Origin: Thermoleophilia bacterium
GTDB taxonomy: Bacteria > Actinomycetota > Thermoleophilia > UBA2241
Length of the DNA stretch: 64,000 bases
Reading direction: 5' to 3'
Assembly: GCA_040769125.1 (NCBI GenBank)
Contig: JAXGLO010000001.1
Coordinates: forward strand, 807,537-871,536
Shown here: piece by piece, positions 14,774 through 55,451 of the stretch
How positions within the stretch are numbered: the first letter of the stretch is position 1
Layout: the number at the start of each line of letters is the position of its first letter
Translations under genes and position numbers: made by a program
The notes under the pieces: generated by a model
Database searches by the model: none
What the model was told of the DNA's origin: nothing
What the model saw: the letters and a program-made list of their open reading frames with translations, nothing else

Positions 14774-14864
14774 AAGATCACTGCGGCAAACCTGGCTGTG
14801 TGAGGTGAGCCGCCTCCGGCAGGGCTGGCTGAAGCGTTCTGCAGCATGCCCGGCCTCTCAATAG

Positions 14865-14908
14865 CGGGCCGCCCTTCCTCTTGCGAGGGGGCGGCCCGCC
14901 GCTTTTCT
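14865..14908 (+). terminator. intrinsic terminator after paralog 1
   Basis: GCGGGCCGCCC-TTCCTCTTGCGA-GGGGGCGGCCCGC hairpin followed by CGCTTTTCTG. The same hairpin recurs after paralogs 2 and 3. Confidence 0.6.
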
Positions 14909-15217
14909 GCGTGGCCGGCTCGCGCTTTCTCTTCCGCAGAGCGGCCCGCCGCCTCCCTTGCGTGTCGGCTCGTCGCTGCTCTCTACCGTCGGCAAGCCCG
15001 TCGCGTTGCCGGGCAAAGCAAACGCCGCCCCGGTGCGGGGCAGCCTATTTCTCTCTCCCTGCTCCCGCTAATAACACTCGACTCACGCCTGCGAGCCTTG
15101 CTCCAGAGCGAGCGGAGTGGTAATCATGAGCCGACACTACACTTCGTCGCCTGATCAACACTACGCCCCGTCGCCTGATCGAGGCGGGTACCTGTAACCG
15201 ACCAGAAAGGATTGCCG

Positions 15218-17683: not shown

Positions 17684-17740
17684 GCCATCTCCGGCAGCGC
17701 TGACCGAGAGCGCCCTGCCATGTGTCCGGCCTCTCCGCAG

Positions 17741-17805
17741 CGGGCCGCCCTTCCTCTTCGGAGGGGCGGCCCGCCACCCGTCGGAGCGGCCCTTTTCCTC
17801 TCTTT
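17741..17805 (+). terminator. intrinsic terminator after paralog 2
   Basis: CGGGCCGCCC-TTCCTCTTCGGA-GGGGCGGCCCG hairpin, then T-rich tract CCCTTTTCCTCTCTTTC. Confidence 0.5.
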
Positions 17806-17915
17806 CTCCTTGCATGCCTTGCTCTAGAGCGCGCCGAGTGATAATCATGGGTCGATACTGCGTCTCGTCGCTCGATCGAGACGGGAGCATCTGCAACCGA
17901 CAGAAAGGACTGCCG

Positions 17916-20405: not shown

Positions 20406-20534
20406 GCCGCCTTCGGTGGCGCTGAAGCGCTTCGGCACGCCCTGCTTGAAAGCGTCTCGCCGCATGCCCGGCCTTTCGCGGCGGGCCGCCTCCAGCGGCG
20501 CTGAGGCGCCCTGCCGTATCCCGGCTCTTCACGG

Positions 20535-20577
20535 CGGGCCGCCCTTCCTCTTCCGAGGGGCGGCCCGCCGTTTCTTC
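20535..20577 (+). terminator. intrinsic terminator after paralog 3
   Basis: GGCGGGCCGCCC-TTCCTCTTCCGA-GGGGCGGCCCGCCG followed by TTTCTTCC. Confidence 0.6.
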
Positions 20578-20748
20578 CGCAGGCGGCGGCCCGCCGCTCT
20601 TCGTACTAACACTCCACTCACGTTTGCGAACTATGCGCCAAGGCAATCTGAAATGAATACGGAGTGATTTTTGATACTGGATCGATGATGCGCCTCGTCG
20701 CACGATCCAGACGGGGTGCATCTGCAACCGAGGGGGAAAGGACTGCCG

Positions 20749-23451
20749 GTGAACCCCAAATCCACATCCACAGGGTCCAATGCTCGCTATCCCACGGGGC
20801 CCAATGCCCGCCATCCCACAGGGCTCAGCGCCCGCCACTTGCTGCTGCTGCTGCTGCTGGTCCTCTCCTGCCTTCTCCTGCTGCTCGTCGCCGCCTCGCC
20901 CGCCGCCGCCATCGTCGCCGGCTGGAGCTGGCAGAATCCATTGCCGCAGGGGAATAGCCTCAACGCCGTCGCCTGCGCCGACAAATCCCGTGCCTTCGCG
21001 GTCGGAGATGACGGCACCATCCTCGCGACCGCCGACGGCGGCAAAAGCTGGACGCCGCAGATCTCGGGGACGACGGCGTACCTCACCGCCGTCGCCTGCG
21101 CCGACGAATCTCACGCTTTCGCGGTCGGATACGATAACGACACGTATGAGGGCCTCATCCTCGCGACCAGCAACGGCGGCCAGAGCTGGACGAGGCAGAC
21201 CTCGGGGACGACTCATTACCTCACCGCCGTCACTTGCGTCGACGAATCCCACGTCTTCGCAGTCGGATATGGCGGCACCATCCTCGCGACCAGCAACGGC
21301 GGCCAGAGCTGGACGAGGCAGACCTCGGGGACGATGGACTCCCTCTTCGCCGTCGCCTTCACCGACGCAAGCCACGGCTGGACGGTCGGCTCCTTCGGCA
21401 CCATCCTCGCGACCACCGACGGCGGCGCGAGCTGGACGGAGCAGACCTCGGGGACGATGAAATACCTCACCGCCGTCACCTGTGCCAACGCAACGCGCGC
21501 CTTCGCGGTCGGAGATGAGGGCGCGATCCTGGCGACCACCAACGGCGGCAAGAGCTGGAAGAAGCAGAGCGCGGGAACGACGAGCCCCCTGCGCGCCGTC
21601 ACCTGTGCCAACGCAACGCGCGCCTTCGCGGTCGGAGATGAGGGCACGATCCTGGCGACCACCAACGGCGGCCAGAGCTGGAAGAAGCAAGGCGCGGGAA
21701 CGACGAACTCCCTGCGCGCCGTCGCCTGCGCCGATGCATCTCGCGCCTTCGCGGTCGGATATGGCGGCACGATCCGCGCGACCACCAACGGTGGCAAGAG
21801 CTGGAAGGCGCAGAGTTCGGGGACGACAAGCTCGCTCTACGGTGTCGCCTGCGCCGATGCATCACGCGCCTTCGCGGTCGGAGCCAATGGCACGATCCTG
21901 GCGACCACCAACGGCGGCCAGAGCTGGAAGAAGCAGGGCGCGGGAACGACGAACTCCCTGCGCGCCGTCGCCTGCGCCGATGCATCTCGCGCCTTCGCGG
22001 TCGGATATGGCGGCACGATCCGCGCGACCACCAACGGTGGCAAGAGCTGGAAGGCGCAGAGTTCGGGGACGACAAGCTCGCTCTACGGTGTCGCCTGCGC
22101 CGATGCATCACGCGCCTTCGCGGTCGGAGCCAATGGCACGATCCTGGCGACCACCAACGGCGGCCAGAGCTGGAAGAAGCAGGGCGCGGGAACGACGAAC
22201 TCCCTGCGCGCCGTCGCCTGCGCCGATGCATCTCGCGCCTTCGCGGTCGGATATGGCGGCACGATCCGCGCGACCACCAACGGTGGCAAGAGCTGGAAGG
22301 CGCAGAGTTCGGGGACGACAAGCTCGCTCTACGGTGTCGCCTGCGCCGATGCATCACGCGCCTTCGCGGTCGGAGCCAATGGCACGATCCTGGCGACCAC
22401 CAACGGCGGCCAGAGCTGGAAGAAGCAGGGCGCGGGAACGACGAACTCCCTGCGCGCCGTCGCCTGCGCCGATGCATCTCGCGCCTTCGCGGTCGGATAT
22501 GGCGGCACGATCCGCGCGACCACCAACGGTGGCAAGAGCTGGAAGGCGCAGAGTTCGGGGACGACAAGCTCGCTCTACGGTGTCGCCTGCGCCGATGCAT
22601 CACGCGCCTTCGCGGTCGGAGCCAATGGCACGATCCTGGCGACCACCAACGGCGGCCAGAGCTGGAAGAAGCAGGGCGCGGGAACGACGAACTCCCTGCG
22701 CGCCGTCGCCTGCGCCGATGCATCTCGCGCCTTCGCGGTCGGATATGGCGGCACGATCCGCGCGACCACCAACGGTGGCAAGAGCTGGAAGGCGCAGAGC
22801 TCGGGGACGACGACCTGCCTCTACGGTGTCGCCTGCGCCGATGCATCCCACGCCTTCGCGGTCGGAGATGAGGGCGCGATCCTGGCGACCACCGACGGCG
22901 GCAAGAGCTGGAAGGCGCAGAGCTCGGGGACGACGCATGCCCTCAACGGCATCGCCTGCGTCGACAAATCCCACGCCTTCGCGGTCGGATACGATCGCGA
23001 CACGTATGAGGGCATCATCCTCGCAACCACCGACGGCGGCAAGAGTTGGACCGCGCAGAGCTCGGGGGTGTCGCAAACCCTCTACGGCATCGCCTGCGCC
23101 GACAAAACCCACGCTTTCGCGGTCGGTTATAAGGGCACCATCCTCGCGACCGCGGATGGCGGCAAGAGCTGGACGGCGAAGATCTCGGGGACGATGAACA
23201 CTCTCTACGCCGTCGCCTGCGCCGACGCATCTCACGCCTTCGCCGTCGGGCATGAGGGCACGATCCTGGCGACCACCAATGGCGGCGAGAGCTGGACGGA
23301 GGAGCACTACGCGGTGACGAATAACATCCTCACCGCCGCCACCCGCGCCGACGAATCCCACGCTTTCGCGGTCGGATACGGCGGCATGATCCTGGCGATG
23401 GCCGGCCCGGATGCTCTCACGAGCTCTCCTCGACCGGCAGCCTCGCCGTGA
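20749..23451 (+). CDS. secreted BNR/Ycf48-like beta-propeller repeat protein, paralog 4 (about 20 blades, C-terminal domain missing)
   Basis: GTG 20749 in the conserved leader (track ORF starts at 20716). Signal peptide preceded by a polymorphic-looking LLLLLL tract. Ends ...MILAMAGPDALTSSPRPAASP* without the conserved C-terminal domain. Confidence 0.8.
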   Translation: MNPKSTSTGSNARYPTGPNARHPTGLSARHLLLLLLLVLSCLLLLLVAASPAAAIVAGWSWQNPLPQGNSLNAVACADKSRAFAVGDDGTILATADGGKSWTPQISGTTAYLTAVACADESHAFAVGYDNDTYEGLILATSNGGQSWTRQTSGTTHYLTAVTCVDESHVFAVGYGGTILATSNGGQSWTRQTSGTMDSLFAVAFTDASHGWTVGSFGTILATTDGGASWTEQTSGTMKYLTAVTCANATRAFAVGDEGAILATTNGGKSWKKQSAGTTSPLRAVTCANATRAFAVGDEGTILATTNGGQSWKKQGAGTTNSLRAVACADASRAFAVGYGGTIRATTNGGKSWKAQSSGTTSSLYGVACADASRAFAVGANGTILATTNGGQSWKKQGAGTTNSLRAVACADASRAFAVGYGGTIRATTNGGKSWKAQSSGTTSSLYGVACADASRAFAVGANGTILATTNGGQSWKKQGAGTTNSLRAVACADASRAFAVGYGGTIRATTNGGKSWKAQSSGTTSSLYGVACADASRAFAVGANGTILATTNGGQSWKKQGAGTTNSLRAVACADASRAFAVGYGGTIRATTNGGKSWKAQSSGTTSSLYGVACADASRAFAVGANGTILATTNGGQSWKKQGAGTTNSLRAVACADASRAFAVGYGGTIRATTNGGKSWKAQSSGTTTCLYGVACADASHAFAVGDEGAILATTDGGKSWKAQSSGTTHALNGIACVDKSHAFAVGYDRDTYEGIILATTDGGKSWTAQSSGVSQTLYGIACADKTHAFAVGYKGTILATADGGKSWTAKISGTMNTLYAVACADASHAFAVGHEGTILATTNGGESWTEEHYAVTNNILTAATRADESHAFAVGYGGMILAMAGPDALTSSPRPAASP
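21650..22860 (+). repeat. Intragenic perfect tandem repeat, 246-nt unit (two blades, 82 aa), about 5 copies
   Basis: Four identical antisense ORFs (21837, 22083, 22329, 22575) spaced exactly 246 nt apart. The protein shows TNGGQSWKKQGAGTTNSLRAVACADASRAFAVGYGGTIRATTNGGKSWKAQSSGTTSSLYGVACADASRAFAVGANGTILAT x5. Confidence 0.85.
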
Positions 23452-41069: not shown

Positions 41070-41366
41070 CGGCAGACTCTATCGAACGGTGCACCCCGCG
41101 GCATCCCTCTCGCGATCGGCATGCCGCATCTGGGACGCTGTTTCCAGAGCCGGCGTCGGCATGTACTGCAGGAGCGGCCCGGATAGGTCTCATGGATAGA
41201 CTTTACGCCTATCCGTGCGCGTCCGGGGCTGCTGTAGCCTGAGTGCTCCACGCGAAGGGCGGGCTCGCCGGCGCGGCTGGGAGGCGTAGTCCGCCGAAAG
41301 GCGGTGGGCGAACGGAAGACGGGCTAAGGGTTTTGGCGGCATTTGCCGAAGCTCACGGGTAGTGCG

Positions 41367-43550
41367 ATGTACGTGAGTATGAGAAGACACACTCTTTGGA
41401 GGCGCCGCCGCGCCGCCATCGCCATTCTGGGCGCGGCGGCTCTTTTCGCTGCCTTGTGCGTGCTGTCTGGCGCGAGCCGGGCCGAGGCCCTCCAGGCGCG
41501 CGCTGGGTCGGTCAGCACGCGCACCCTGACAGTGGCCGAGCGGCTCCCGATCGACTCCGCTGCCGCGGCGTCTGGAGCGCAGCGCCTCGCGCGCTCTGCT
41601 TCTGCAGCGGTGACGCTTGATGCCGGCGCCGAGTTCACCATGGTCGGTGTGACCTGTGAGCCGCCGGCTGCGGAGGGAGCCGTCACCATCCTCATCCGCA
41701 CCAGCCTCGACGGCAGCTCCTGGGGCAGCTGGTACGAGGGCCCGCTCGAGGTCGTCGCCGATCGCGATGGCGTGCCGCAGGCCTATATGGAGGCCATGTG
41801 GACCGGCGCCGCACGGTACGTTCAGGTGCGTGCCAGCGCTCCTTCTGCACGCGCCCCCCTCGCGTTGCGTGGGGTGCGCCTGGTCGCCCTCGATACAGAC
41901 TGTTCCGGCTTGTCCGCCGCGCGCGCGTCGGGCGCGGCCGGCGAGCATGTGGCCGGCGTTCCGGTCGGGTTGTCCGGCGTCCCGCCGGCGAGGGCCGAGG
42001 TCGCCCGGCCGGCGCTGGTCAGCCGGGCCGGCTGGGGCGCGAACGAGTCGCTGCGGAGCGGCACCCCTGCGTTCGCCGCGGTCAAGATGGCCTTCGTGCA
42101 CCACACCGCTGGCGGCAATACGTACACGGCGGCCGACGCGCCCGGCATCGTGCGCGGTATCTACGCTTATCACACCACCAGCCTCGGCTGGAGCGACATC
42201 GGCTACAACTTCCTCATCGATCGCTTCGGGACGATCTACGAAGGTCGGTACGGCGGTGTCGCTCGGGGGGTGGTCGGCGCCCAGGTCTACGGCTTCAATA
42301 CCGGCAGCACCGGCGTCTCCATGATCGGCACGTACACGCAGGATGCGCCGGCCGCTGCGGCTATGACCGCGCTTGAGCGGCTTCTGGCCTGGAAACTCGG
42401 GCTGAGCGGCCTCAACCCCACCGGCACCGCGAGCATGAAGTACGGTGGCCTTGTAGACGACAAGTACAAGGTCGGCCAGACGGTGAGCCTGCCGGTGATC
42501 GCGGGGCACCGCGACGCCAACTTCACCGAGTGCCCCGGGCTGGCGCTCTATAATCGGCTTCCGGCGGTGCGTCGGGGAGTCGCGGCACTCCTCGACGACG
42601 GCGCTATTACCGAGCCCAAACCCTGGAAGGTCACCCTCAAGGCGCCGGCGACGCTCGTCGCCTCCGGCTCCACGGTCGCCTTCAAGGGCACGGTCAAGAG
42701 CACGAGCACCGGCCTGCCCGGCAAAGGCACCGTGATCCTGCAGCGTCGGCCGGCCGCCGGCGGCGCCTGGACCAACCTGCGCAGTCGCACCCTCACGAGC
42801 AGCGGCGCCTACGCCGTGTCGCTGCGGGTGAGCCGTGTGGCCGACTGGCAGTTCCGCATGCGCATGCCGGCCGACGCCCTCAACCTGGCCGGCTGTAGCG
42901 CGGTTGTGGGCTTGCGCGTCATCGAGCCCAAACCCTGGAAGGTCACCCTCAAGGCGCCGGCGACGCTCGTCGCCTCCGGCTCCACGGTCGCCTTCAAGGG
43001 CACGGTCAAGAGCACGAGCACCGGCCTGCCCGGCAAAGGCACCGTGATCCTGCAGCGTCGGCCGGCCGCCGGCGGCGCCTGGACCAACCTGCGCAGTCGC
43101 ACCCTCACGAGCAGCGGCGCCTACGCCGTATCGCTGCGGGTGAGCCGTGTGGCCGACTGGCAGTTCCGCATGCGCATGCCGGCCGACGCCCTCAACCTGG
43201 CCGGCTGTAGCGCGGTTGTGGGCTTGCGCGTCATCGAGCCCAAACCCTGGAAGGTCACCCTCAAGGCGCCGGCGACGCTCGTCGCCTCCGGCTCCACGGT
43301 CGCCTTCAAGGGCACGGTCAAGAGCACGAGCACCGGCCTGCCCGGTAAAGGCACCGTGATCCTGCAGCGTCGGCCGGCCGCCGGCGGCGCCTGGACCAAC
43401 CTGCGCAGTCGCACCCTCACGAGCAGCGGCGCCTACGCCGTATCGCTGCGGGTGAGCCGTGTGGCCGACTGGCAGTTCCGCATGCGCATGCCGGCCGACG
43501 CCCTCAACCTGGCCGGCTGTAGCGCGGTGAGGACGCTCACCGTACGATAG
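41367..43550 (+). CDS. secreted N-acetylmuramoyl-L-alanine amidase (PGRP/Amidase_2 domain) with three C-terminal 104-aa repeats
   Basis: Signal peptide MRRHTLWRRRRAAIAILGAAALFAAL. Amidase_2 core MAFVHHTAGGNTY...GWSDIGYNFLIDRFGTIYEGR. Then IEPKPWKVTLKAPATLVASGSTVAFKGTVKST... x3. Confidence 0.8.
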   Translation: MYVSMRRHTLWRRRRAAIAILGAAALFAALCVLSGASRAEALQARAGSVSTRTLTVAERLPIDSAAAASGAQRLARSASAAVTLDAGAEFTMVGVTCEPPAAEGAVTILIRTSLDGSSWGSWYEGPLEVVADRDGVPQAYMEAMWTGAARYVQVRASAPSARAPLALRGVRLVALDTDCSGLSAARASGAAGEHVAGVPVGLSGVPPARAEVARPALVSRAGWGANESLRSGTPAFAAVKMAFVHHTAGGNTYTAADAPGIVRGIYAYHTTSLGWSDIGYNFLIDRFGTIYEGRYGGVARGVVGAQVYGFNTGSTGVSMIGTYTQDAPAAAAMTALERLLAWKLGLSGLNPTGTASMKYGGLVDDKYKVGQTVSLPVIAGHRDANFTECPGLALYNRLPAVRRGVAALLDDGAITEPKPWKVTLKAPATLVASGSTVAFKGTVKSTSTGLPGKGTVILQRRPAAGGAWTNLRSRTLTSSGAYAVSLRVSRVADWQFRMRMPADALNLAGCSAVVGLRVIEPKPWKVTLKAPATLVASGSTVAFKGTVKSTSTGLPGKGTVILQRRPAAGGAWTNLRSRTLTSSGAYAVSLRVSRVADWQFRMRMPADALNLAGCSAVVGLRVIEPKPWKVTLKAPATLVASGSTVAFKGTVKSTSTGLPGKGTVILQRRPAAGGAWTNLRSRTLTSSGAYAVSLRVSRVADWQFRMRMPADALNLAGCSAVRTLTVR
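42609..43520 (+). repeat. Intragenic perfect tandem repeat, 312-nt unit (104 aa, Ig-like-looking module), 3 copies
   Basis: Repeat starts at 42609, 42921 and 43233. Antisense ORFs 42548, 42809 and 43121 are near-identical at 312-nt spacing. Confidence 0.85.
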
Positions 43551-45712: not shown

Positions 45713-46483
45713 ATGACGGTCGCTTCTCTCCCCGACGACTCGGATCTCCGGCGCCTCGCGTGGCAGCACATCCCGCCCGGAGCGCGAGAGCCGTTCGGCG
45801 CCTATATCTTTCACAGCGACGAGCCGGGCGCCGAGCTTGCCCGTGCTGTGGAGCGGGCGGTGTTCCTTGAAGCATTCGACAACACGCCCGATCTGCTCGC
45901 AAGGGAGTATGGCCCGTATGAGTCGGGCAGCGTGTTCATCTGCGTCCTCGACCACTTGCGCGGCGTCCCCGCGGGCATGATGCGGGTTCTCATGTCGTCG
46001 CCTGCTGGGTTCAAGAGCCTCAACGACATCGAGACGGTGTGGGGCGAGTCGGCGGAGGATGTCCTGCAGCGCACCGGCCTGGCGCTCGACGCCGGCCGGA
46101 CGTGGGATGTCGCTACGCTGGCCGTCGACAGAGAGTATCGTGGCAAGGCGGCACGCGGCCTCGTCACGATGGCTCTCTACCAGACTCTTACACTGGCTGC
46201 CCACGCCTGTGGCGTCGAGTGGTTCGTCGCTATCCTCGACATGCCCGTGTTCCGCCTGCTGCGCTGGAAGCTCCGCATGATCTTCGCCGGCTACGCGGGG
46301 CTAGGGCCGCGCTCGTACCTGGGTTCGGCGGCGAGCATCCCGGCCTGGTGCAACGTTGTCGAGGCCGAGCGCAAGCTCGCGGCTACCGACGCCGACCTGC
46401 ATGCCATTCTCGTGCGTGGCGAGGGCCTCGAGCCGGCTCTGCGCGGCGCCGATCTCGCGTGTGCCGAGCGCCTCGTCGGCTGA
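45713..46483 (+). CDS. hypothetical protein, possibly GNAT-fold N-acyltransferase-like
   Basis: Starts 4 nt after the preceding stop (operon). ATLAVDREYRGKAARGLVTMALYQ...VAILDMPVFRLL is reminiscent of acyl-amino-acid synthase/GNAT-like folds. Its 3' end is the source of the fossil fragments at the duplication junctions. Confidence 0.45.
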   Translation: MTVASLPDDSDLRRLAWQHIPPGAREPFGAYIFHSDEPGAELARAVERAVFLEAFDNTPDLLAREYGPYESGSVFICVLDHLRGVPAGMMRVLMSSPAGFKSLNDIETVWGESAEDVLQRTGLALDAGRTWDVATLAVDREYRGKAARGLVTMALYQTLTLAAHACGVEWFVAILDMPVFRLLRWKLRMIFAGYAGLGPRSYLGSAASIPAWCNVVEAERKLAATDADLHAILVRGEGLEPALRGADLACAERLVG

Positions 46484-46513
46484 CGGAGGCACGCCGCCGC
46501 AGGCGAGCAGGGG

Positions 46514-48847
46514 TCAGGAGGCGGGCACGAGCCTCAGCTTCGGGGCGTTCAGCGAGGCAACGATCGTCGGCAGGGCGTGCGCTTCTACGGGGCGTGAGTA
46601 CAGGTAGCCCTGGGCCAGGTCGCAGCCCAGCTCCTGGAGGCGCTTGGCCTGGTCCGCCGTCTCCACGCCTTCTCCTACCGTCATGGTGCTGAGCGCTCGA
46701 GCCATGGCCACGATGGCCGCTACGACGGCATCGTCGGTGTTGTTCGGCTTCTCCAGGTTGCTCACGAAGCCGCGGTCGATCTTGAGGCTCGTTGCCGGGA
46801 ATTGCTTCACGTAGGTCAGCGACGAGTACTCCGTGCCGAAATCGTCGATGGCCATCCGTACGCCCAGCTGCCGCAGCTTCTCGAGGATCGCGGTGGCGGC
46901 CTCGGTGTCCTGCATGAGCGCCGACTCGGTCAGCTCCACACAGAGGAATTCGCCGTCCAGTTCGTGGGTCGCGAGGAGGTCGCTGATCGTCTTGACGATG
47001 TCGTCGTTGTACAGCTGAACGGCGGAGATATTCACCGAGACGAAGAGGTTCGTGAACTCCGGCACCTGGCGTCGCCAGGCGGCGAGCTGCCCGAGGGCCT
47101 CCTCGAGAACCCAGCGGCCGATATCGATGATCGCTCCGCTCTCCTCGGCCAGCGGGATGAACTGTGCCGGCATGATGGTGCCGTGCTGGGGATGCGTCCA
47201 GCGCAGCAGCGCCTCCATGCCGGCCACCGAGGCGATGGGCAGGCTCATGATCGGCTGGTACAGCAGGTGCAGCTGGCCCAGCTCGACGGCGTGGTGCAGA
47301 TCCCTCTCGAGCTCAAGCTCGGTGGCGCGCGCGTGCATCGACTCGTCGAACAGCGCGACGGCGTCGCGGCCAGCCTGCTTGGCATGGTACATGGCGGTGT
47401 CCGCGTTGCGTACGAGGGCCTCGACAGTCGCGTCGGTGTCGTCTCCTGAGGCGAAGGCGAGACCGATACTCGCCGATACGTGGAGCGGCCTGCCGTCGAG
47501 TATGAAGGGCTCTCTGAGGCTGGCGAGGAGCCGTTCCGCAAGATTCAGGGCCTGGGAGACGCTGACGACGTGGCTGAGGATGACGGTGAACTCGTCGCCT
47601 CCGATTCGCGTCACCAGGTCGGTGGGCCGGACGTGGGCGCGGAGCCTCTCGGCGACCTCGATGAGCAGCAGGTCGCCGTAGCGGTGTCCCAGCGTGTCGT
47701 TAACCAGCTTGAAGCGGTCGAGATCCAGGTAGAGAAGCGCCACGTTTGCGTTGTCGATGGTGGGCTCCTTGACGAGGCCCGTGAGGTGCTCCTCCATCCT
47801 GCGGCGGTTCGGCAGGCCTGTGAGGCTGTCGTGGAGCGCCTGGAAGGCGAGCGCCTGCTCGGATCGCTCCGCTATCTGCATCGAGACGATGACGCGCAGG
47901 GTCGTGATGACGGCCATCGCCAGCATCAGCACTGCGAGGACGATCCGGTCGGAGAGGGAGGAGCTGGGGTTGTGAAGTGCAACGATCGTCGGCATGGCAA
48001 GTGCGGCGGCTACCGGGTAGAGGCGTCCTTTTGTGGACTTCGTGCTGCACTCTGAGGAAGCGGGCTCGGTCAGCGTGCGCATCGACGGATGCAGCGCGGT
48101 CGCCGCTGCCGTCACGTACGCGAGACCGTAGGGCAGGCTGACCAAGCTGGCCGGCAGGCTGTTCACCCTCATCTCCTCAAGCATGTAGACGACGTCGCCC
48201 AGGAGCAGGAAGGCTACGGCAGCGACCACCAGCCAGAGTGCCGGTACGCTCCTCCGTGCCGGGTTGAACGCGACCCAGAGCGTCGCCACCAGCAGGAAGA
48301 TCGACGCAGGAGGATACGCGACGAGAACGAGGGCGACTTTCAGCGGGACGTCATGGTGCTGCAGGAACGGCTGGAAGGCGAAGACCCAGATAAGAAGCAT
48401 GAGCGCTAGAGACGCGAGTAGCGAGTCGAGAGCCATGTTCGCGCGACGCTCTTTCCACACTACCCACTGCGAGAACCCCAACAGCCCAAAGGTGAGAAGA
48501 GCGTAGCCCGGGATCGAGAGTGCGTCGGGGAGGAGCGATCGGCTCGCAGACAGGTTACCGAGCGTCTCCAGCTCGCTGCGCGCTGCCCCTCCCATCAGGA
48601 ACATCAGGAGCGCGGCGCTGATGAGCATCCAGTACCTGGCGTGTGGAGGGCGGCGTAGCCAGACCGACACCGCGAGCGCAAGGATGCTCGTAGCCGCGAC
48701 GCCGGCGAACACTGCGTTTCCGAGGTCTCCGAACAGCCCGAAGGATAGGGAGACCATGAGCGAGTAGCCGACTAGAAGGAACGTGACGGTCGGCCCCTGG
48801 CTCTTACCTATCGATTTTATGGCTGCCTGAACTGACCCCATGATCAA
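46514..48847 (-). CDS. membrane sensor diguanylate cyclase/phosphodiesterase (8-TM N-domain plus GGDEF plus EAL), copy 1
   Basis: 777 aa. GGDEF motif RIGGDEF and EAL motif (MEALLRW) both intact. Polytopic MASE-like N-terminal domain. Confidence 0.85.
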   Translation of the reverse strand: MIMGSVQAAIKSIGKSQGPTVTFLLVGYSLMVSLSFGLFGDLGNAVFAGVAATSILALAVSVWLRRPPHARYWMLISAALLMFLMGGAARSELETLGNLSASRSLLPDALSIPGYALLTFGLLGFSQWVVWKERRANMALDSLLASLALMLLIWVFAFQPFLQHHDVPLKVALVLVAYPPASIFLLVATLWVAFNPARRSVPALWLVVAAVAFLLLGDVVYMLEEMRVNSLPASLVSLPYGLAYVTAAATALHPSMRTLTEPASSECSTKSTKGRLYPVAAALAMPTIVALHNPSSSLSDRIVLAVLMLAMAVITTLRVIVSMQIAERSEQALAFQALHDSLTGLPNRRRMEEHLTGLVKEPTIDNANVALLYLDLDRFKLVNDTLGHRYGDLLLIEVAERLRAHVRPTDLVTRIGGDEFTVILSHVVSVSQALNLAERLLASLREPFILDGRPLHVSASIGLAFASGDDTDATVEALVRNADTAMYHAKQAGRDAVALFDESMHARATELELERDLHHAVELGQLHLLYQPIMSLPIASVAGMEALLRWTHPQHGTIMPAQFIPLAEESGAIIDIGRWVLEEALGQLAAWRRQVPEFTNLFVSVNISAVQLYNDDIVKTISDLLATHELDGEFLCVELTESALMQDTEAATAILEKLRQLGVRMAIDDFGTEYSSLTYVKQFPATSLKIDRGFVSNLEKPNNTDDAVVAAIVAMARALSTMTVGEGVETADQAKRLQELGCDLAQGYLYSRPVEAHALPTIVASLNAPKLRLVPAS

Positions 48848-48951
48848 TAGGTATCGGCAGATCGCTGCGATTCTGCACTAATTTCGCCGGATTCTGCGCC
48901 GACGCCCGACGCCGATCTCCCGAAGGCTCAGCGTGCAGCTCCTTCTCGGCT

Positions 48952-49140
48952 GTGGACTGTGAAGCGGGTCAGTCCGGAAGTTCGGCGGCGAGCATCCCGG
49001 CGTGGCGTAACGTCGTCGAGGCTGAGCGGAGGCTGGCGGCCACCGACGCCGACCTGTCTGCCATTCTGGTTTGTGACGAGGCCCTCGAGCCGGCTCTGCG
49101 CGGCGCCGATCTGGTGTGTGCCGAGCGCCTCGTCGGCTGA
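48952..49140 (+). pseudogene. Fossil 3' fragment of the 45713..46483 gene at the unit1/unit2 duplication junction
   Basis: Encodes SAASIPAWRNVVEAERRLAATDADLSAILVCDEALEPALRGADLVCAERLVG*, against SAASIPAWCNVVEAERKLAATDADLHAILVRGEGLEPALRGADLACAERLVG* in the intact gene. A shorter, internally deleted version lies at about 51640..51700. Confidence 0.55.
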
Positions 49141-49170
49141 CGGAGGCGCGCCGCCGCGGGCGAGCAGGGG

Positions 49171-51513
49171 TCAGACAGGGGCCAGGTTGGGCACGAGTCG
49201 CACTTTCGGGGCGTTCAGCGAGGCGACGATCGTCGGCAAGGCCTGCGCTTCCACGGGACGTGAGTACAGGTAGCCTTGGGCCAGGTCGCAGCCCAGCTCG
49301 TGGAGGCGCTTGGCCTGTTCTGCCGTCTCCACGCCTTCCCCCACCGTCATGGTTCCCAGCGCTCGAGCCATGGCCACGATGGCCGCTACGACGGCATCGT
49401 CGGTGTTGTTCGGTTTCTCCAGGTTGCTCACGAAGTCACGGTCGATCTTGAGGCTCGTTGCCGGGAATTGCTTGACGTAGGCCAGCGACGAGTACTCCGT
49501 GCCGAAATCGTCGATGGCCAACCGCACGCCCAGCCGCCGCAGCTTCTCGAGGATCCCGGTGGCGGCCTCGGTGTTCTGCATGAACGTTGACTCGGTTAGC
49601 TCCACACCGAGGGACCGGCTGTCCAGCCCGTGGGCCGCGAGGAGATCGCTGATCGCCTCGACGATGTCGTCGTTGTACAGTTGTTTGGCGGAGATGTTCA
49701 CCGCAACGAAGAGGTTCGCGAACTCGGGTGCCTGGCGTCGCCAGGCGGCGAGCTGCCTGAGGGCCTCCTCGAAAACCCAGCGGCCGATATCGATGATCGC
49801 TCCGCTCTCCTCGGCCAGCGGGATGAACTGTGCCGGCATGATGGTGCCATGCTCGGGATGTGTCCAGCGCAGCAGCGCCTCCATACCGACCACCGAGGTG
49901 CCGGGCAGACTCACAATCGGCTGGTACAGCAGGTGCAGCTGGCCCAGCTCGACGGCGTGGTGCAGATCTCTCTCGAGCTCAAGCTCGGTGGCGCGCGCGT
50001 GCATCGACTCGTCGAACAGCGCGACAGCGTCGCGGCCACTCTGCTTCGCATGGTACATGGCGGTGTCCGCGTTGCGTACGAGGGCCTCGACAGTCGCGTC
50101 GGTGTCGTCTCCTGAGGCGAAGGCGAGGCCGATGCTCGCCGACACGTGGAACGGCTTCCCATCCAGGATAAAGGGCTCTCTGAGGCTGACGAGGAGCCGT
50201 TCCGCGAGATCCATGGCTTGGGAGACGCTGACGACGTGGCTAAGGATGATGGTGAACTCGTCGCCTCCTATTCGCGTCACCAGGTCGGTGGGCCGGACGT
50301 GGGCGCGGAGCCTCTCGGCGACCTCGATGAGCAGCAGGTCGCCGTAGCGGTGTCCCAGCGTGTCGTTAACCAGCTTGAAGCGGTCGAGATCCAGGTAGAG
50401 CAGCGCCACGTTGGTGTTGTCGATGGTGGGCTCTGTGATGAGATCCGTGAGGTGCTCCTCCATTCTGCGGCGGTTCGGCAGGCCTGTGAGGCTGTCGTGG
50501 AGCGCCTGGAAGGCGAGCGCCTGCTCGGAGCGCTCGGCTATCCGCATCGCGTAGACGACGCACAGGATCGTGGTGACGGCCATCGCGATCATCAGCACTG
50601 CGAGGACGATCCGGTCGGAGAGGGAGGCGCTGGGGTTGTGAAGCGCAACGATCGTCGGCAGGCTGAGCGCGATGGCTACCGGGTAGATGCGTCCCCTTAT
50701 CGGCTTCGCGCTGCACTCTGAGGGGGCGGGCTCAGTGAGCGTGCGCATCGACGGATGCAGCGCGGTCGCTCCTCCCATCACGTACGCGAGGGCGTAAGGC
50801 AGGTTGATCAGGTTGCCCGGCAGGCTGTTTACCCCTATCTCCTCAAGCATGAAAGCGGTGTCGCCCACGAGCAGGCCAGCTATGGCAGCGACCACCAGCC
50901 AGAGCGATGGTACGTTTCTCTGCGCCGGGTTGAACGCGACCCAGAACGTCACCACCAGCAGGAAGATCGACGTGGATGGATACGTGATGAGGCTGACGGC
51001 GACTGGCAACGGGACGTCGTTGTTGTGGAGGAACGGCTGGAAGACAAAGATCCAGACAAGGAGAATCAGCGCCAGAGACGCGAGCAGCGCGTCGAGAATG
51101 ATGCCCGCTCGACGCTCCTTCCACACCGACCACTGTGAGAACCCCATCAGCCCCAGGGCGAGCAGTGTGTAGCCCGGGAGCGCGAGCACGTCGGGGAGGA
51201 TCGATCGGCTTTCGGACACGTTGCCGAGCGTCTCCAGCGCACCGCGCGATCCCTCCGAGAGCAGGAACAGTACGAGCGCGACGTTGAGGAAGATCCAGGA
51301 CCTGGCGCGCAGAGGGCGGTGTAGCCTGACCGCGACTGCGAACACGAGGATGCTCGCGATCGCGATGCCGGCGAGCACAATAGTGTTGAGGCCGTCGGAT
51401 GTCCCGAAGCACATGGCGACGGAGAGCGAGCAGCCGACCACACAGTACGCGACGGTCGGCCAGTGGCTCTTACCTATCGATTTCAGGGCTGCCCGAATTG
51501 ACCTCATTGCCAA
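49171..51513 (-). CDS. membrane sensor GGDEF-EAL protein, copy 2
   Basis: 780 aa. More than 90% identical to copy 1 across GGDEF-EAL, about 70% in the TM sensor domain. Confidence 0.85.
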   Translation of the reverse strand: MAMRSIRAALKSIGKSHWPTVAYCVVGCSLSVAMCFGTSDGLNTIVLAGIAIASILVFAVAVRLHRPLRARSWIFLNVALVLFLLSEGSRGALETLGNVSESRSILPDVLALPGYTLLALGLMGFSQWSVWKERRAGIILDALLASLALILLVWIFVFQPFLHNNDVPLPVAVSLITYPSTSIFLLVVTFWVAFNPAQRNVPSLWLVVAAIAGLLVGDTAFMLEEIGVNSLPGNLINLPYALAYVMGGATALHPSMRTLTEPAPSECSAKPIRGRIYPVAIALSLPTIVALHNPSASLSDRIVLAVLMIAMAVTTILCVVYAMRIAERSEQALAFQALHDSLTGLPNRRRMEEHLTDLITEPTIDNTNVALLYLDLDRFKLVNDTLGHRYGDLLLIEVAERLRAHVRPTDLVTRIGGDEFTIILSHVVSVSQAMDLAERLLVSLREPFILDGKPFHVSASIGLAFASGDDTDATVEALVRNADTAMYHAKQSGRDAVALFDESMHARATELELERDLHHAVELGQLHLLYQPIVSLPGTSVVGMEALLRWTHPEHGTIMPAQFIPLAEESGAIIDIGRWVFEEALRQLAAWRRQAPEFANLFVAVNISAKQLYNDDIVEAISDLLAAHGLDSRSLGVELTESTFMQNTEAATGILEKLRRLGVRLAIDDFGTEYSSLAYVKQFPATSLKIDRDFVSNLEKPNNTDDAVVAAIVAMARALGTMTVGEGVETAEQAKRLHELGCDLAQGYLYSRPVEAQALPTIVASLNAPKVRLVPNLAPV

Positions 51514-51774
51514 CTGTTATCGGCGGATCGCTGCGATTCTGTACTGATTTAGCCTGATTTCACACTGACGCCGGGCGACTACTTACCCGAAGGCTCCGCA
51601 TGCTACTCATTCTCGGCTGCGGACTGCGGAGCAGGTCGGTCCGGAAGCTCCATGGCGAGGGCCTCGAGCCGGCTCTGTGCAGCGTCATCTCGTGAGCGCC
51701 GAACGCCCCGTCGGGTGGCGCAGGCTCGTCGCCGCGGGCGCAGGGCAGGGGGTCAGGCGCGCGTCAGGCAGGGG

Positions 51775-54120
51775 TCAGGCGGGCGCGGGTACGAGCCTCA
51801 GCCGCGGGGCGTTCAGCGAGGCGACCGTCTGCGGCAGGGTCTGCGCTTCCACGGGGTATGAGTACAGGTAGCCTTGGGCCATGTCGCAGCCCAGCTCGTG
51901 GAGGCGCCTGGCCTGGTCTGCCGTCTCCACGCCTTCCGCCACCGTCTTGATTCTCAGCGTCCGAGCCATGGCCACGATGGCCGCTACGACGGCGGCGTCG
52001 GCGCTGTCCGGCTTCGTTACATGGCTTACGAAGTCGCGGTCGAGCTTGAGGCTCGTTACCGGGAATCGCTTGACGTAGGCCAGCGACGAGTACTCCGAGC
52101 CGAAATCGTCGATGGCCATCTGTACGCCCAGCCGCCGCAGCTTCTCCAGGGTCTCGGTGGCGGCGTCGGTGTCCTGCATGAGCGTCGACTCGGTAAGCTC
52201 CAGACAGAGGGACTGGCCGTCAAGCCCGTGGATCGCGAGGAGGTCGCTGACCGTCTCGACGATATCGTCCCTGAAAAGCTGGACGGCGGAGAGGTTCACC
52301 GAGACGCAGAGATTCGCGAACTCCGGCGCCTGGCGTCGCCAGGCGGCGAGCTGCCCGAGGGCCTCCCCGAGAACCCATTTTCCGATATCGATGATGGCTC
52401 CGCTCTCCTCGGCCAGCGGGATGAACTGCGCCGGCGAGATGGTGCCGTGCAGGGGATGCGTCCAGCGCAGCAGCGCCTCCATGCCGACCACCGAGGCGCC
52501 GGGCAGACTCACGATCGGCTGGTACAGCAGGTGCAGCTGGTCCAGCTCGACGGCATGGCGCAGATCCCTCTCGAGCTCGAGTTCGATAGCGTGCGCGTGC
52601 ATCGAATCGTCGAACAGCGCGACGGCGTCGCGGCCGCCCTGCTTGGCATAGTACATGGCGGTGTCCGCGTTGCTGACGAGGGCCTCGGCGGCTGCTTCAG
52701 TGTCGTCACCTGAGGCGAAGGCGAGGCCGATGCTCGCCGACACGTGGAACGGCCTGCCGTCGAGCATGAAGGGCTCTCTGAGGCTGGCGAGGAGTCGTTC
52801 CGCGAGATCCATGGCCTGGGAGACGCTGACGACGTGGCTGAGGATAATGATGAACTCATCGCCTCCTATTCGCGTCACCAGGTCGGTGGGCCGGACGTGG
52901 GCGCGGAGTCTCTCGGCGACCTCGACGAGCAGCAGGTCGCCGTAGCGGTGCCCCAGCATGTCGTTGATTAGCTTGAAGCGGTCGAGATCCAGGTAGAGCA
53001 GCGCCACGTTGGTGTTGTCTATAGAGGGCTCTTTGTTGAGATTAATGAGATCCGTGAGGTGCTCCTTCATCCTGCGGCGGTTGGGCAGGCCTGTGAGGCT
53101 GTCGTGCAGCGCCTGGAAGGCGAGCGCCTGCTCGGATCGCTCCGCTACACGCATCGCGTAGATGACACGCAGGACGGTGGTGACGGCCATCGCCATTATC
53201 AGCACTGCGAGGACGATCCGGTCGGAGAGGGAGGCGCTGGGGTTGTGAATCGCAATGATCGCCGGCAGGCTGAGTGCGAAGACTACCGGGTAGATGCGTC
53301 CCGGTATCGGCTTTCTGCTCGACTGTGGGGAGGCGGGCTGGGTAAGCGTGAGCATCGACGGATGCAACGCGGTCGCCGCCGCCATCACGTACGCGAGGCC
53401 GTAGGGCAGATCGACCAGACTGGTCGGCAGGGAGTTCACGCCCATCTCCTCGAGCATGTAGCCGACGTCGCCCAGGAGCAGGCAAGCTACGGCAGCGACT
53501 AGCAGCCAGAGCGCGGGTACGTTCTTCTGTGCCGGGTTGAGCGCGATCCAGAACGTCACCGCCAGTATGGCGATCGACGCAGCGGGATACGCGATGAGGA
53601 TGAGGGCGACCTTCAGCGGGACGTCGTTGTTGTGCAGGAATGGCTGGAAGGCGAAGACCCAGATAAGGAGAATCAGCCCCAGAGACGCGAGCGTCGCGTC
53701 GAGCATGATGCCCGCGCGACGCTCCTTCCACACGGACCACTGTGAGAACCCCATCAGCCCCACGGTGAGCAGCAGGTAGCCCGGGAGGGAGAACAAGTCG
53801 GGGAGGAGCGATCGGCTCGCGGTCACGTTGCCGAGCGTATGGGTCCACTCACTTAATATGCCCGACACCAGGAAGAGCACGAGTGCGGCGGTGATGGTGA
53901 TCCAGTGCCTGCTGTGTGCAGGGCGGCGCAGCAGGACCGACCCTCCAAGTGCAAAGACGCTCATGACCGCGACGTTGGTGTACACGATGGGCTTGAAGTC
54001 CCCGAACAGCCCGAGGGACAGTGCGACCATGAGCGAGCAGCCGACCACAATGTGCACGACGGCCGGCCACTGGCTCTCAGCTAGGGATCTCGCGGCTGTC
54101 CGAATTGACCCCATAGTCAA
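51775..54120 (-). CDS. membrane sensor GGDEF-EAL protein, copy 3
   Basis: 781 aa, same architecture. GGDEF and EAL motifs intact. Confidence 0.85.
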   Translation of the reverse strand: MTMGSIRTAARSLAESQWPAVVHIVVGCSLMVALSLGLFGDFKPIVYTNVAVMSVFALGGSVLLRRPAHSRHWITITAALVLFLVSGILSEWTHTLGNVTASRSLLPDLFSLPGYLLLTVGLMGFSQWSVWKERRAGIMLDATLASLGLILLIWVFAFQPFLHNNDVPLKVALILIAYPAASIAILAVTFWIALNPAQKNVPALWLLVAAVACLLLGDVGYMLEEMGVNSLPTSLVDLPYGLAYVMAAATALHPSMLTLTQPASPQSSRKPIPGRIYPVVFALSLPAIIAIHNPSASLSDRIVLAVLIMAMAVTTVLRVIYAMRVAERSEQALAFQALHDSLTGLPNRRRMKEHLTDLINLNKEPSIDNTNVALLYLDLDRFKLINDMLGHRYGDLLLVEVAERLRAHVRPTDLVTRIGGDEFIIILSHVVSVSQAMDLAERLLASLREPFMLDGRPFHVSASIGLAFASGDDTEAAAEALVSNADTAMYYAKQGGRDAVALFDDSMHAHAIELELERDLRHAVELDQLHLLYQPIVSLPGASVVGMEALLRWTHPLHGTISPAQFIPLAEESGAIIDIGKWVLGEALGQLAAWRRQAPEFANLCVSVNLSAVQLFRDDIVETVSDLLAIHGLDGQSLCLELTESTLMQDTDAATETLEKLRRLGVQMAIDDFGSEYSSLAYVKRFPVTSLKLDRDFVSHVTKPDSADAAVVAAIVAMARTLRIKTVAEGVETADQARRLHELGCDMAQGYLYSYPVEAQTLPQTVASLNAPRLRLVPAPA

Positions 54121-54242
54121 ACAATTATCGGCAGATCAGCGCGATTCTGTACTAATTAAATCTGAAGGTGCGCCGACGCCACACGCCTGACGCCCGTTTC
54201 TCGAAGGTTCGGCGTGCGACTTCTGCTCAGATGCGGAGCAGG

Positions 54243-55451
54243 TCAGTCCGGAAGCTCGGCGGCGACCCCGATCGCCTCGCGAAGCGTCTCGAGGCCCTCC
54301 ATGAGCTCTGCCTTGGAGATGTTCAGGGCGGGGAACACGCGGACGGCGTTGCCCTGCGTCTGGCGCACGAACACCTTTCGTGCCAGGCACTCGGCAGCGA
54401 CTCGGGTCGCGGTGGCCTCGTCGCGGAGCTGGACCAAGAGCAGCAGGCCGCGACCGCGGGCGCCGGTGACGACGCCGGGCAAGTCCTGGGCCCAGCGGTT
54501 CATCTCGGCGAGCGCGGTGGCGCCGAGCGCCTTGACGTGCGTCGCGATGTCGTTCTCCAGAAGGTAGCGCAGCACCGCGTGAGCCACGGCGCAGGCGAGC
54601 GGGTTGCCGCAGTAGGTGCCGCCGTGGTCGCCGGCCTGAAGCTTGGCCGACACCTCCTCGGAGGTGACGAAGGCGCCCAGCGGGAAGCCTCCGCCCATGC
54701 CTTTGGCCAGCGTCAGGAAGTCGGCCTCGGCACCGGTGTCGCTGATCGCGAACATGGGACCGGTGCGGCAGAAGCCTGTCTGCACCTCGTCGGCGATCAG
54801 CAGGGTGCCGTTCCGGCGGCACAGGCGCGAGATCTCGGGGAAGTAGTCGTCGTCGGGGATGTTGACGCCACCCTCGCCCTGGATGGGCTCTACGATCACG
54901 GCGGCGACATCCGCGTCGAGAGCCTGCGCGATCGCATCCAGGTCGTTGAAGGGGATGAAGCGGAAGCCCGGCATGAGCGGGTCGTACTTCTCGCGATGCT
55001 TGGCCTGGCCGGTGGCCGAGAGCGTGCCGATCGTGCGTCCGTGGAAGCTCCCGAGAGTGGCGATCACGTCGCGGCGCCCCGTGACCTTGCGCGCCAGCTT
55101 CATGGCTGCGTCGTTGGCCTCGGCGCCGCTGTTGCTGAAGAAGACGCGGGTGAGGTTCGGCGGGAGGACCTCGGTGAGCAACGAAAGGTAGGCCGCGCGC
55201 GCCGGTGAATGGGTGAGACCCGCGTCGGGGTTCTGCAGGATGCGGCCGCCCTGCTCGGCGAGCGCGGTCTGTATCGCCGGGTGGGCGTGGCCGATCGAGG
55301 TGACGCCCCAGCCGGCGGTGAGGTCGAGATACCTCACGCCTTCTTCATCCCAGACGTGCACGCCCTCGCCGCGCGCGATCGAGATCGGCAGCTTGGCGAA
55401 GAACGGGGGTGTGTGAGCGCTCTCGACGGCGATGGTCTCGCTGGTTCCCAT
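54243..55451 (-). CDS. argD: class-III PLP aminotransferase, acetylornithine aminotransferase-like
   Basis: ...LDLTAGWGVTSIGHAHP... LIADEVQTGFCRTGPMFA... (PLP-lysine region), about 400 aa. Confidence 0.8.
   Translation of the reverse strand: MGTSETIAVESAHTPPFFAKLPISIARGEGVHVWDEEGVRYLDLTAGWGVTSIGHAHPAIQTALAEQGGRILQNPDAGLTHSPARAAYLSLLTEVLPPNLTRVFFSNSGAEANDAAMKLARKVTGRRDVIATLGSFHGRTIGTLSATGQAKHREKYDPLMPGFRFIPFNDLDAIAQALDADVAAVIVEPIQGEGGVNIPDDDYFPEISRLCRRNGTLLIADEVQTGFCRTGPMFAISDTGAEADFLTLAKGMGGGFPLGAFVTSEEVSAKLQAGDHGGTYCGNPLACAVAHAVLRYLLENDIATHVKALGATALAEMNRWAQDLPGVVTGARGRGLLLLVQLRDEATATRVAAECLARKVFVRQTQGNAVRVFPALNISKAELMEGLETLREAIGVAAELPD

Follow-up and report, generated by a model that had tools for sequence, protein, structure and literature searches.

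How did a Thermoleophilia bacterium of a soil actinobacterial lineage come to carry three adjacent and similar genes for membrane-bound GGDEF-EAL proteins, and have these genes since acquired separate sensory roles? We have analyzed these questions in a window of 64,000 nucleotides (nt) from the assembly GCA_040769125.1 (contig JAXGLO010000001.1, positions 807,537 to 871,536 of the forward strand), and all coordinates of the array below refer to this window. In our view, the array is very probably a lineage-specific tandem triplication of a one-gene segment of 2.66 kb, formed by a microhomology-mediated duplication and then by unequal crossing-over.

The three genes lie on the minus strand at 46514..48847 (copy A, 777 amino acids (aa)), 49171..51513 (copy B, 780 aa), and 51775..54120 (copy C, 781 aa) in the list of open reading frames (ORFs), and each encodes a polytopic transmembrane (TM) sensor domain followed by a GGDEF and an EAL domain, the latter two assigned by Pfam. 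Direct-repeat analysis found three in-register copies with a head-to-tail spacing of 2666 nt from A to B and of 2598-2607 nt after that. The alignment runs through the full units of the array, which are all co-oriented, as in a tandem segmental duplication or amplification, and the nucleotide divergence among copies A, B, and C is 13-21%. An initial annotation made from the sequence alone had described three co-oriented paralogs of 777-781 aa with a period of about 2.6 kb and had read them as a tandem segmental triplication; the ORFs, the repeat spacing, and the gene relics at the junctions all agree with this description.

The origin of the array can be read from its two spacers, J1 (between copies A and B) and J2 (between copies B and C). 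When both spacers were aligned with both outer flanks, each showed a chimera, in which a relic of the right-flank aminotransferase gene, its final codons, adjoins the 3' portion of the gene on the left flank, here called p256. The p256 gene is intact (45713..46483, plus strand), and its last 162 nt (46322-46483) are the left end of the duplicated unit. The right-flank gene, a class-III aminotransferase of the acetylornithine/ornithine family, is also intact (54243..55451, minus strand; Pfam PF00202, E 6.5e-104; NCBIfam argD-like matches below cut-off), and the unit terminates on the right in the 3' end of this gene. Two intact flank genes are what a tandem duplication predicts. At J1, the aminotransferase relic (48958..48991, minus strand) consists of the last seven codons and the stop codon (LAAELPD plus stop) and ends in the recombinant TCGGCGGCGA at 48982-48991, and the p256 relic (48979..49140, plus strand) holds codons 204-256 and the stop codon in frame, 88% identical to the parent with differences at 19 of the 162 nt. 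At J2, the aminotransferase relic (51625..51650, minus strand) reads LAMELPDR with a mutated stop codon, and the p256 relic (~51653..51718, plus strand) lacks both ~84 nt, corresponding to 46334-46417, and its stop codon.

The 10-nt sequence TCGGCGGCGA lies at 46325..46334 (plus strand) within p256 codons ~205-208, at 54256..54265 (plus strand), where the aminotransferase gene has its last codons, and a single time at J1 (48982); only seven copies of it are present in the whole 64 kb with both strands counted. A short direct repeat at both parental breakpoints with one copy at the join is the pattern of a microhomology-mediated duplication. Additionally, J1 and J2 have the same end point of the aminotransferase relic and a common 7-nt insertion (a CTG[C/T]GGA duplication; ~48955-48962 in J1), which is present neither in the true aminotransferase flank nor in L027, the closest single-copy relative. 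Therefore, both junctions descend from one original join. The initial annotation had taken the junctions as fragments of p256 only. The junction fragments do derive from the 3' end of p256, and the fragment at J2 is internally deleted as described, but the aminotransferase 3' end is also present in each junction, and the join lies at the 10-nt microhomology. Likewise, the J1 fragment is complete for the duplicated 3' portion of p256 (48979-49140) and not for the whole gene, and the breakpoint placed inside p256 is one of two, the overlooked one being in the last codons of the aminotransferase gene. At 51717-51774, between the J2 p256 relic and the stop codon of copy C, we also observed extra GGGGTCAGGC-like repeats, which together with the 84-nt loss suggest that local slippage may have taken place at J2 after the amplification.

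The state before the duplication was sought in related loci. Our genome collection contained 17 species-level relatives (L005-L021), which are uncultured Thermoleophilia and Acidimicrobiales-like metagenome-assembled genomes (MAGs) from soil. Of these 17 genome loci, 16 have just one TM-GGDEF-EAL gene after p256, in convergent orientation, and the contig of the seventeenth stops just past p256. The closest relative, L027/L028 (Logan runs SRR34774206 and SRR34774211), has ~82% nucleotide identity over the locus and a p256 protein with 90% identity. Its gene order is YggT, ackA, an AdoMet_dc-like gene, p256 (rightward), one GGDEF-EAL gene of 785 aa (leftward), a 110-nt spacer, and the aminotransferase gene (leftward), which is precisely the order expected of the ancestor. 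L027 carries the 14-nt repeat GGGTTCGGCGGCGA at both breakpoint sites, one of them the p256 site where the window has TCGGCGGCGA. Therefore, the predisposing direct repeat of 12-14 nt is older than the duplication. A second copy within 10 kb on either side was found in none of 66 family loci from JGI metagenomes, and none of ~84 related loci carries an array. The comparison of copy number proposed by the initial annotation thus gave a single copy in every locus open to examination (16 genome loci, L027-L030, and the 66 metagenome loci), and L027/L028 have both flanks in common with the array. A first metagenome scan with copy-A-specific peptides returned no close relatives, and exact look-ups of copy C (from its ATG) and of the 62-aa J1 relic ORF returned no record. 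In three long-read MAGs (L006, L018, and L021), the orthologous GGDEF-EAL genes are frameshifted, by sequencing errors or as true pseudogenes; L017 was left out of the protein alignment.

With regard to timing, copies A, B, and C form one clade in 300 of 300 bootstraps in every partition. With L027 as the outgroup, the flank genes have a synonymous divergence (dS) by the NG86 method of 0.37-0.51, each copy is separated from L027 by 0.37, and the copies are separated from one another by 0.215-0.246. Both amplification steps therefore postdate the split from the L027 lineage. Least-squares dS branches are 0.106 for A, 0.109 for B, 0.122 for C, and 0.249 for outgroup plus stem, and considering that the internal A-B branch is only 0.012, the two amplification steps were nearly simultaneous. 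A GENECONV-like run test found no significant gene-conversion tract, including in a patch of B-C similarity at 48309-48533.

The three proteins keep the parts that a working c-di-GMP (cyclic dimeric guanosine monophosphate) enzyme of this type has. The GGDEF domain was matched in all copies (Pfam PF00990, E 2.3e-45 to 2.3e-46, 155-158 bits against a cut-off of 23.8), and the alignments show RPTDLVTRIGGDEF in each, with an intact GG(D/E)EF active-site motif and the RxxD inhibitory site five residues upstream. The EAL domain was matched as well (PF00563, E about 1e-71 to 1e-75, listed as 3.8e-74 to 6.7e-71), and the motifs MEALLRW, VN(I/L)SA, ELTES, DDFG, K(I/L)DR, EGVET, and AQGYLYS were read in all three copies, in agreement with the earlier statement that all motifs are intact. 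At 191 positions invariant in 12 orthologs, copy-specific changes number only 2 in A, 4 in B, and 9 in C. The N-terminal membrane region (~335 aa) matched no Pfam or NCBIfam model, no profile match to known membrane sensor families (MASE1-like, 5TMR-LYT, 7TMR-DISM, and similar) was obtained, and no specific solved fold was found for it. Its initial description as an eight-helix domain has to be revised, as the AlphaFold2 model gives ~10 membrane helices (predicted local distance difference test score (pLDDT) 73). In distant relatives of the module (P0006-P0011, 21-25% identity), the output part is a histidine kinase or GGDEF only, and the module is therefore a portable sensor domain that is still missing from curated libraries. 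The products of the array would be membrane receptors whose sensor module sets the balance between c-di-GMP synthesis and hydrolysis.

To compare the domains, we estimated the ratio of nonsynonymous (dN) to synonymous divergence, dN/dS (omega), by NG86, LWL85, and codon-frequency-aware maximum likelihood (ML), pairwise and with four taxa, and set YN00 aside because of its unstable dS. The single-copy ortholog pairs L009/L012 and L010/L013, with dS comparable to that of the paralogs, were used as the reference. Amino acid identity between the copies is 64-67% in the TM region, 88-94% in GGDEF, and 79-88% in EAL, so that the TM region is the most diverged, as initially proposed, but the catalytic part does not exceed 90% throughout. 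Since dS is similar across the domains, this asymmetry arises from dN. In the TM region, omega is 0.81-0.91 (NG86) and 0.52-0.57 (ML) between paralogs, against 0.18-0.19 and 0.07-0.08 between orthologs. The corresponding values are 0.18-0.23 and 0.07-0.08 against 0.05-0.10 and 0.01-0.02 in GGDEF, and 0.34-0.63 and 0.16-0.32 against 0.05-0.14 and 0.01-0.05 in EAL. Single-copy orthologs also rank TM above the catalytic domains, and therefore this ranking is the normal pattern of the family. The paralogs stand apart in that omega is raised several-fold in all of their domains.

A relative-rate test, restricted to replacements at positions that 9 or more of 12 distant orthologs conserve, showed the same acceleration. 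In the whole protein, 68-75 replacements fall on the window lineage and 12-13 on the L027 lineage (p about 1e-10), and the counts are 29-36 against 7-8 in TM, 7-11 against 2-3 in GGDEF (p 0.04-0.18), and 21-32 against 2-3 in EAL. Accordingly, the protein of the window lineage evolved 5-6-fold faster than its single-copy sister, clearly in TM and EAL and more weakly in GGDEF. In the same test, p256 gave 4 against 3 (p = 1), and therefore the acceleration is specific to the GGDEF-EAL gene. Of the ~70 replacements at conserved sites, 41 are common to all copies. A further 15 changes of the window lineage unite A with B alone, and copy A has 10 of its own, copy B 15, and copy C 20. The 41 common replacements indicate that much of the change predates the present three-way split or was homogenized across an older array. 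Sites of EAL at which A and B are both derived show 23 nonsynonymous to 6 synonymous changes, and the two conflicting patterns show 1-2 to 3-4; this excess over the terminal branches is not significant (Fisher p = 0.06), and a replacement burst in the EAL domain of the A/B ancestor is suggestive. Overall, the copies differ most in membrane helices 1-3 and in EAL (A/B against C).

Based on these results, we propose the following history. The ancestor had p256 (rightward), one GGDEF-EAL gene (leftward), and the aminotransferase gene (leftward), with a direct repeat of 12-14 nt, (G)GTTCGGCGGCGA, in the 3' part of p256 and at the 3' end of the aminotransferase gene. Through an illegitimate exchange between these repeats, or a switch of template from one to the other, a tandem duplication arose with a chimeric join and intact flank genes. 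Unequal homologous crossing-over between the 2.66-kb repeats would have added the third copy almost immediately and copied the junction with it, as the shared join features suggest, and J2 would have lost ~84 nt afterwards. All three copies have kept open frames, the catalytic motifs, and each its own ancestral proximal upstream element. The amplification may have raised the dosage and then relaxed the constraint. The protein acceleration is specific to this gene, over half of its changes came before the three-way split, and the A+B ancestor may also have gained the EAL burst. The three receptors probably answer different or differently tuned membrane or extracytoplasmic cues.

Several observations weigh against this reading of the array. 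Three nucleotides at the join differ, so no clean deletion turns J1 into J2, and J2 could conceivably come from an independent second breakpoint. The 41 common replacements lie on a stem of only ~0.07 dS, which is a poor fit to a simple scheme of duplication followed by divergence; this short and heavily loaded stem suggests an earlier functional shift or an older, homogenized array. Also, the topology varies by domain: the EAL or catalytic half supports (A,B),C and the TM half favors no single branching order, so that the order of events is tentative. Finally, the copy number is read from one assembly, and the repeat is too long for short reads to span. Unequal crossing-over between already diverged copies was also considered as the cause of the domain-dependent topology and was rejected, since it predicts that the EAL end of B is like that of C, and this end resembles A.

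The first alternative concerns what drove the divergence. In adaptive neofunctionalization, positive selection drove the TM domains apart after duplication while the catalytic output was conserved. This account is possible, although on the whole we consider it unlikely. On the one hand, the TM region is the most diverged part, with an identity of only 43-53% in residues 20-110; the first 110 codons give an NG86 omega of 1.1-1.4 and are more diverged than the adjoining non-coding spacer; and conserved TM motifs persist, so the TM domain is not decaying. On the other hand, the confidence interval of this omega includes 1 and ML gives 0.59-0.73 for the same codons, while the G+C content at third codon positions (85%) inflates NG86 values. 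The ranking of TM above catalytic domains is also found in single-copy orthologs, EAL and GGDEF were accelerated too, and 20 of the ~30-36 conserved-site TM changes are common to all copies. Positive selection is thus not demonstrated, and adaptive sensor diversification is a possibility. The initial annotation had suggested that sensory input diversified after duplication. The dN-driven asymmetry with TM fastest agrees with it, but the same ranking in single-copy orthologs does not, and the 41 common replacements predate the last amplification, so that the suggestion is only partly supported. The domain-wise dN/dS comparison that it had proposed gave the expected order, TM above catalytic, together with a rise in every domain and no significant excess over 1. 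Without a single-copy baseline, a pattern of diverging sensor and conserved output is not readable as post-duplication adaptation.

The second alternative is an older array under concerted evolution, which would have been multi-copy for longer and homogenized by crossing-over or conversion until ~0.11 dS ago. The 41 common replacements on the ~0.07 dS stem, compared with 13 in the sister lineage over ~0.18 dS, are in favor of this explanation, as is the fact that both junctions copy one join. However, no significant conversion tracts are left, the p256 and aminotransferase relics have diverged from the parent genes to about the same extent as the copies from each other, and the closest relative L027 is single-copy. 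We therefore regard an older array as quite unlikely. A third explanation takes the copies as redundant products of a transient dosage response, in which relaxed constraint raised omega ahead of pseudogenization and loss. The rise of omega in all domains and the intrinsic instability of tandem arrays (PMC9997567) would fit such a course, but it is very unlikely: three frames and their catalytic motifs are intact after ~0.11 dS per branch, just 2, 4, and 9 copy-specific changes hit the 191 ortholog-invariant sites, and the omega of GGDEF is still 0.07-0.23.

The edges of the array are also seen in contigs from outside the assembly. Both of its flanks were matched at 100% identity by independent short-read contigs from 4-5 other runs, and the first 298 codons of copy C were likewise matched at 100% identity in such contigs. 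These contigs end at 46488 and 53220, where the similarity of the copies becomes too high for short k-mers. The chance that an assembler concatenated strain variants of a single-copy gene is close to nil: the metagenome source and the contig breaks at the repeat edges could be cited for it, but the copies are 13-21% different, the specific chimeric junctions with decayed relics of both flank genes are joins that no assembler makes, and a true multi-copy locus is also expected to break contigs at its repeat cores.

In addition to the coding region, each unit of the tandem triplication retains a proximal upstream element, at 48852..48875 for copy A (CAGAATCGCAGCGATCTGCCGATA), 51518..51541 for copy B, and 54126..54149 for copy C, all on the minus strand and the latter two present as the conserved block. 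In gene orientation, the block CAGAATCGCnnnGATCnGCCGATA stands just upstream of the start in every unit, as the initial annotation had noted for its promoter-proximal sequence. In L027 and in the majority of single-copy orthologs, the 3' half of the block, TGCCGAYA, precedes the ATG by 8-12 nt, and it is therefore an ancestral promoter-proximal or 5' untranslated-region element. Rfam recognized no RNA family anywhere in the window, and hence no riboswitch in the conserved upstream block. A scan of the gene strand for sigma-70 promoters and intrinsic terminators gave nothing above the shuffled background. All three ORFs open with TTG-x-ATG (48841-48847, 51507-51513, and 54114-54120), and translation probably begins at the third codon of each, an ATG located at 48841 (A), 51507 (B), and 54114 (C). 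Copies A, B, and C are without the AGGAG-like Shine-Dalgarno sequence that several single-copy orthologs have between the TGCCGAYA box and the ATG. Judging from these start regions, translation initiation may differ in the window lineage.

The left-flank gene deserves attention as a neighbor. Its 256-aa product matched no Pfam or NCBIfam family, and it did not fall within the LuxI-type autoinducer synthase profile (Pfam Autoind_synth, no match even at E <= 10). A confident AlphaFold2 model of p256 is most similar to LuxI-type N-acyl homoserine lactone synthases and to the N-acyl amino acid synthase FeeM, at the fold level only, as sequence identity to them is 10-14% and p256 has an extra C-terminal region. 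Unlike LuxI-type synthases, which are partnered by a LuxR-type regulator, p256 has a membrane c-di-GMP enzyme as its partner. It is the convergent immediate neighbor of the receptor gene in 16 of 17 genome loci, in L027-L030, and, among the metagenome loci L031-L097, in 35 or more of the 43 that were testable, whereas the other neighbors vary among related loci. A pairing of a signal synthase with its receptor would be plausible. More specifically, a new signal-synthase and receptor module of soil Thermoleophilia- and Acidimicrobiales-like bacteria could be imagined, in which p256 would make an N-acyl (lipid-like) signal, the membrane domain would sense it, and the receptor alone would have been triplicated and tuned to variants; this proposal, drawn from the fold and the neighborhood, is one in which we place little confidence. 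As for the right flank, the C-terminal 245 aa of the aminotransferase compared with L027 5479-6216 gave an omega of 0.45, and ackA, the AdoMet_dc-like gene, and p256 gave 0.15-0.21.

Other repeats are present elsewhere in the window. At 42611-43528, within the ORF 41343-43550 (plus strand), a 312-nt unit is repeated 2.9 times with 99% identity, so that the encoded N-acetylmuramoyl-L-alanine amidase (Amidase_2) carries three near-identical 104-aa immunoglobulin-like repeats at its C-terminus; this is either a much younger tandem amplification or an assembly effect. Also, coding repeats of 123 nt (41 aa) form several long arrays at 12520-23398, which contain up to ~20 copies of 68-90% identity and apparently span several large genes.

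Membrane-anchored bifunctional GGDEF-EAL receptors carry MASE-type or other integral-membrane sensor domains. The proteins of the array resemble them in having an N-terminal polytopic module, a GGDEF domain with RxxD, an EAL domain, and all canonical motifs, but their membrane module matches no Pfam or NCBIfam model or specific solved fold. In terms of organization, seven in-tandem PAS-GGDEF genes, LIC_11125-LIC_11131, are known from Leptospira interrogans (PMC12943098). Both arrays consist of head-to-tail paralogs of sensor-coupled c-di-GMP enzymes at one locus with a lineage-specific copy number. The array described here differs in its uncharacterized polytopic membrane sensor, its dual GGDEF-EAL output, and its three copies. 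Another difference is that one can recover where the joins lie, which microhomology they share, and what the single-copy precursor was. In terms of mechanism, illegitimate recombination at little or no homology followed by fast unequal crossing-over between repeats has been described in the Acinetobacter cat system (PMC9997567). The chimeric join of right end and left end, the short homology at it, and the same join in later copies are common to both. However, the Acinetobacter amplicons are laboratory products of 12-290 kb and are unstable without selection, whereas the unit here is 2.66 kb and has been fixed long enough for 13-21% divergence. Considering that tandem c-di-GMP enzyme arrays and the duplication-amplification mechanism are already described, the array is an ordinary gene-family expansion.

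In summary, this locus provides an unusually complete natural record of the expansion of a bacterial signaling gene family, in which the precursor, the predisposing repeat, the join point, the second amplification, and the later change of rate can be read from the sequence. As both mechanism and outcome are textbook, the locus alone is without wider consequences. The pairing of p256 with the receptor gene across many uncultured soil lineages has more potential than the array itself.

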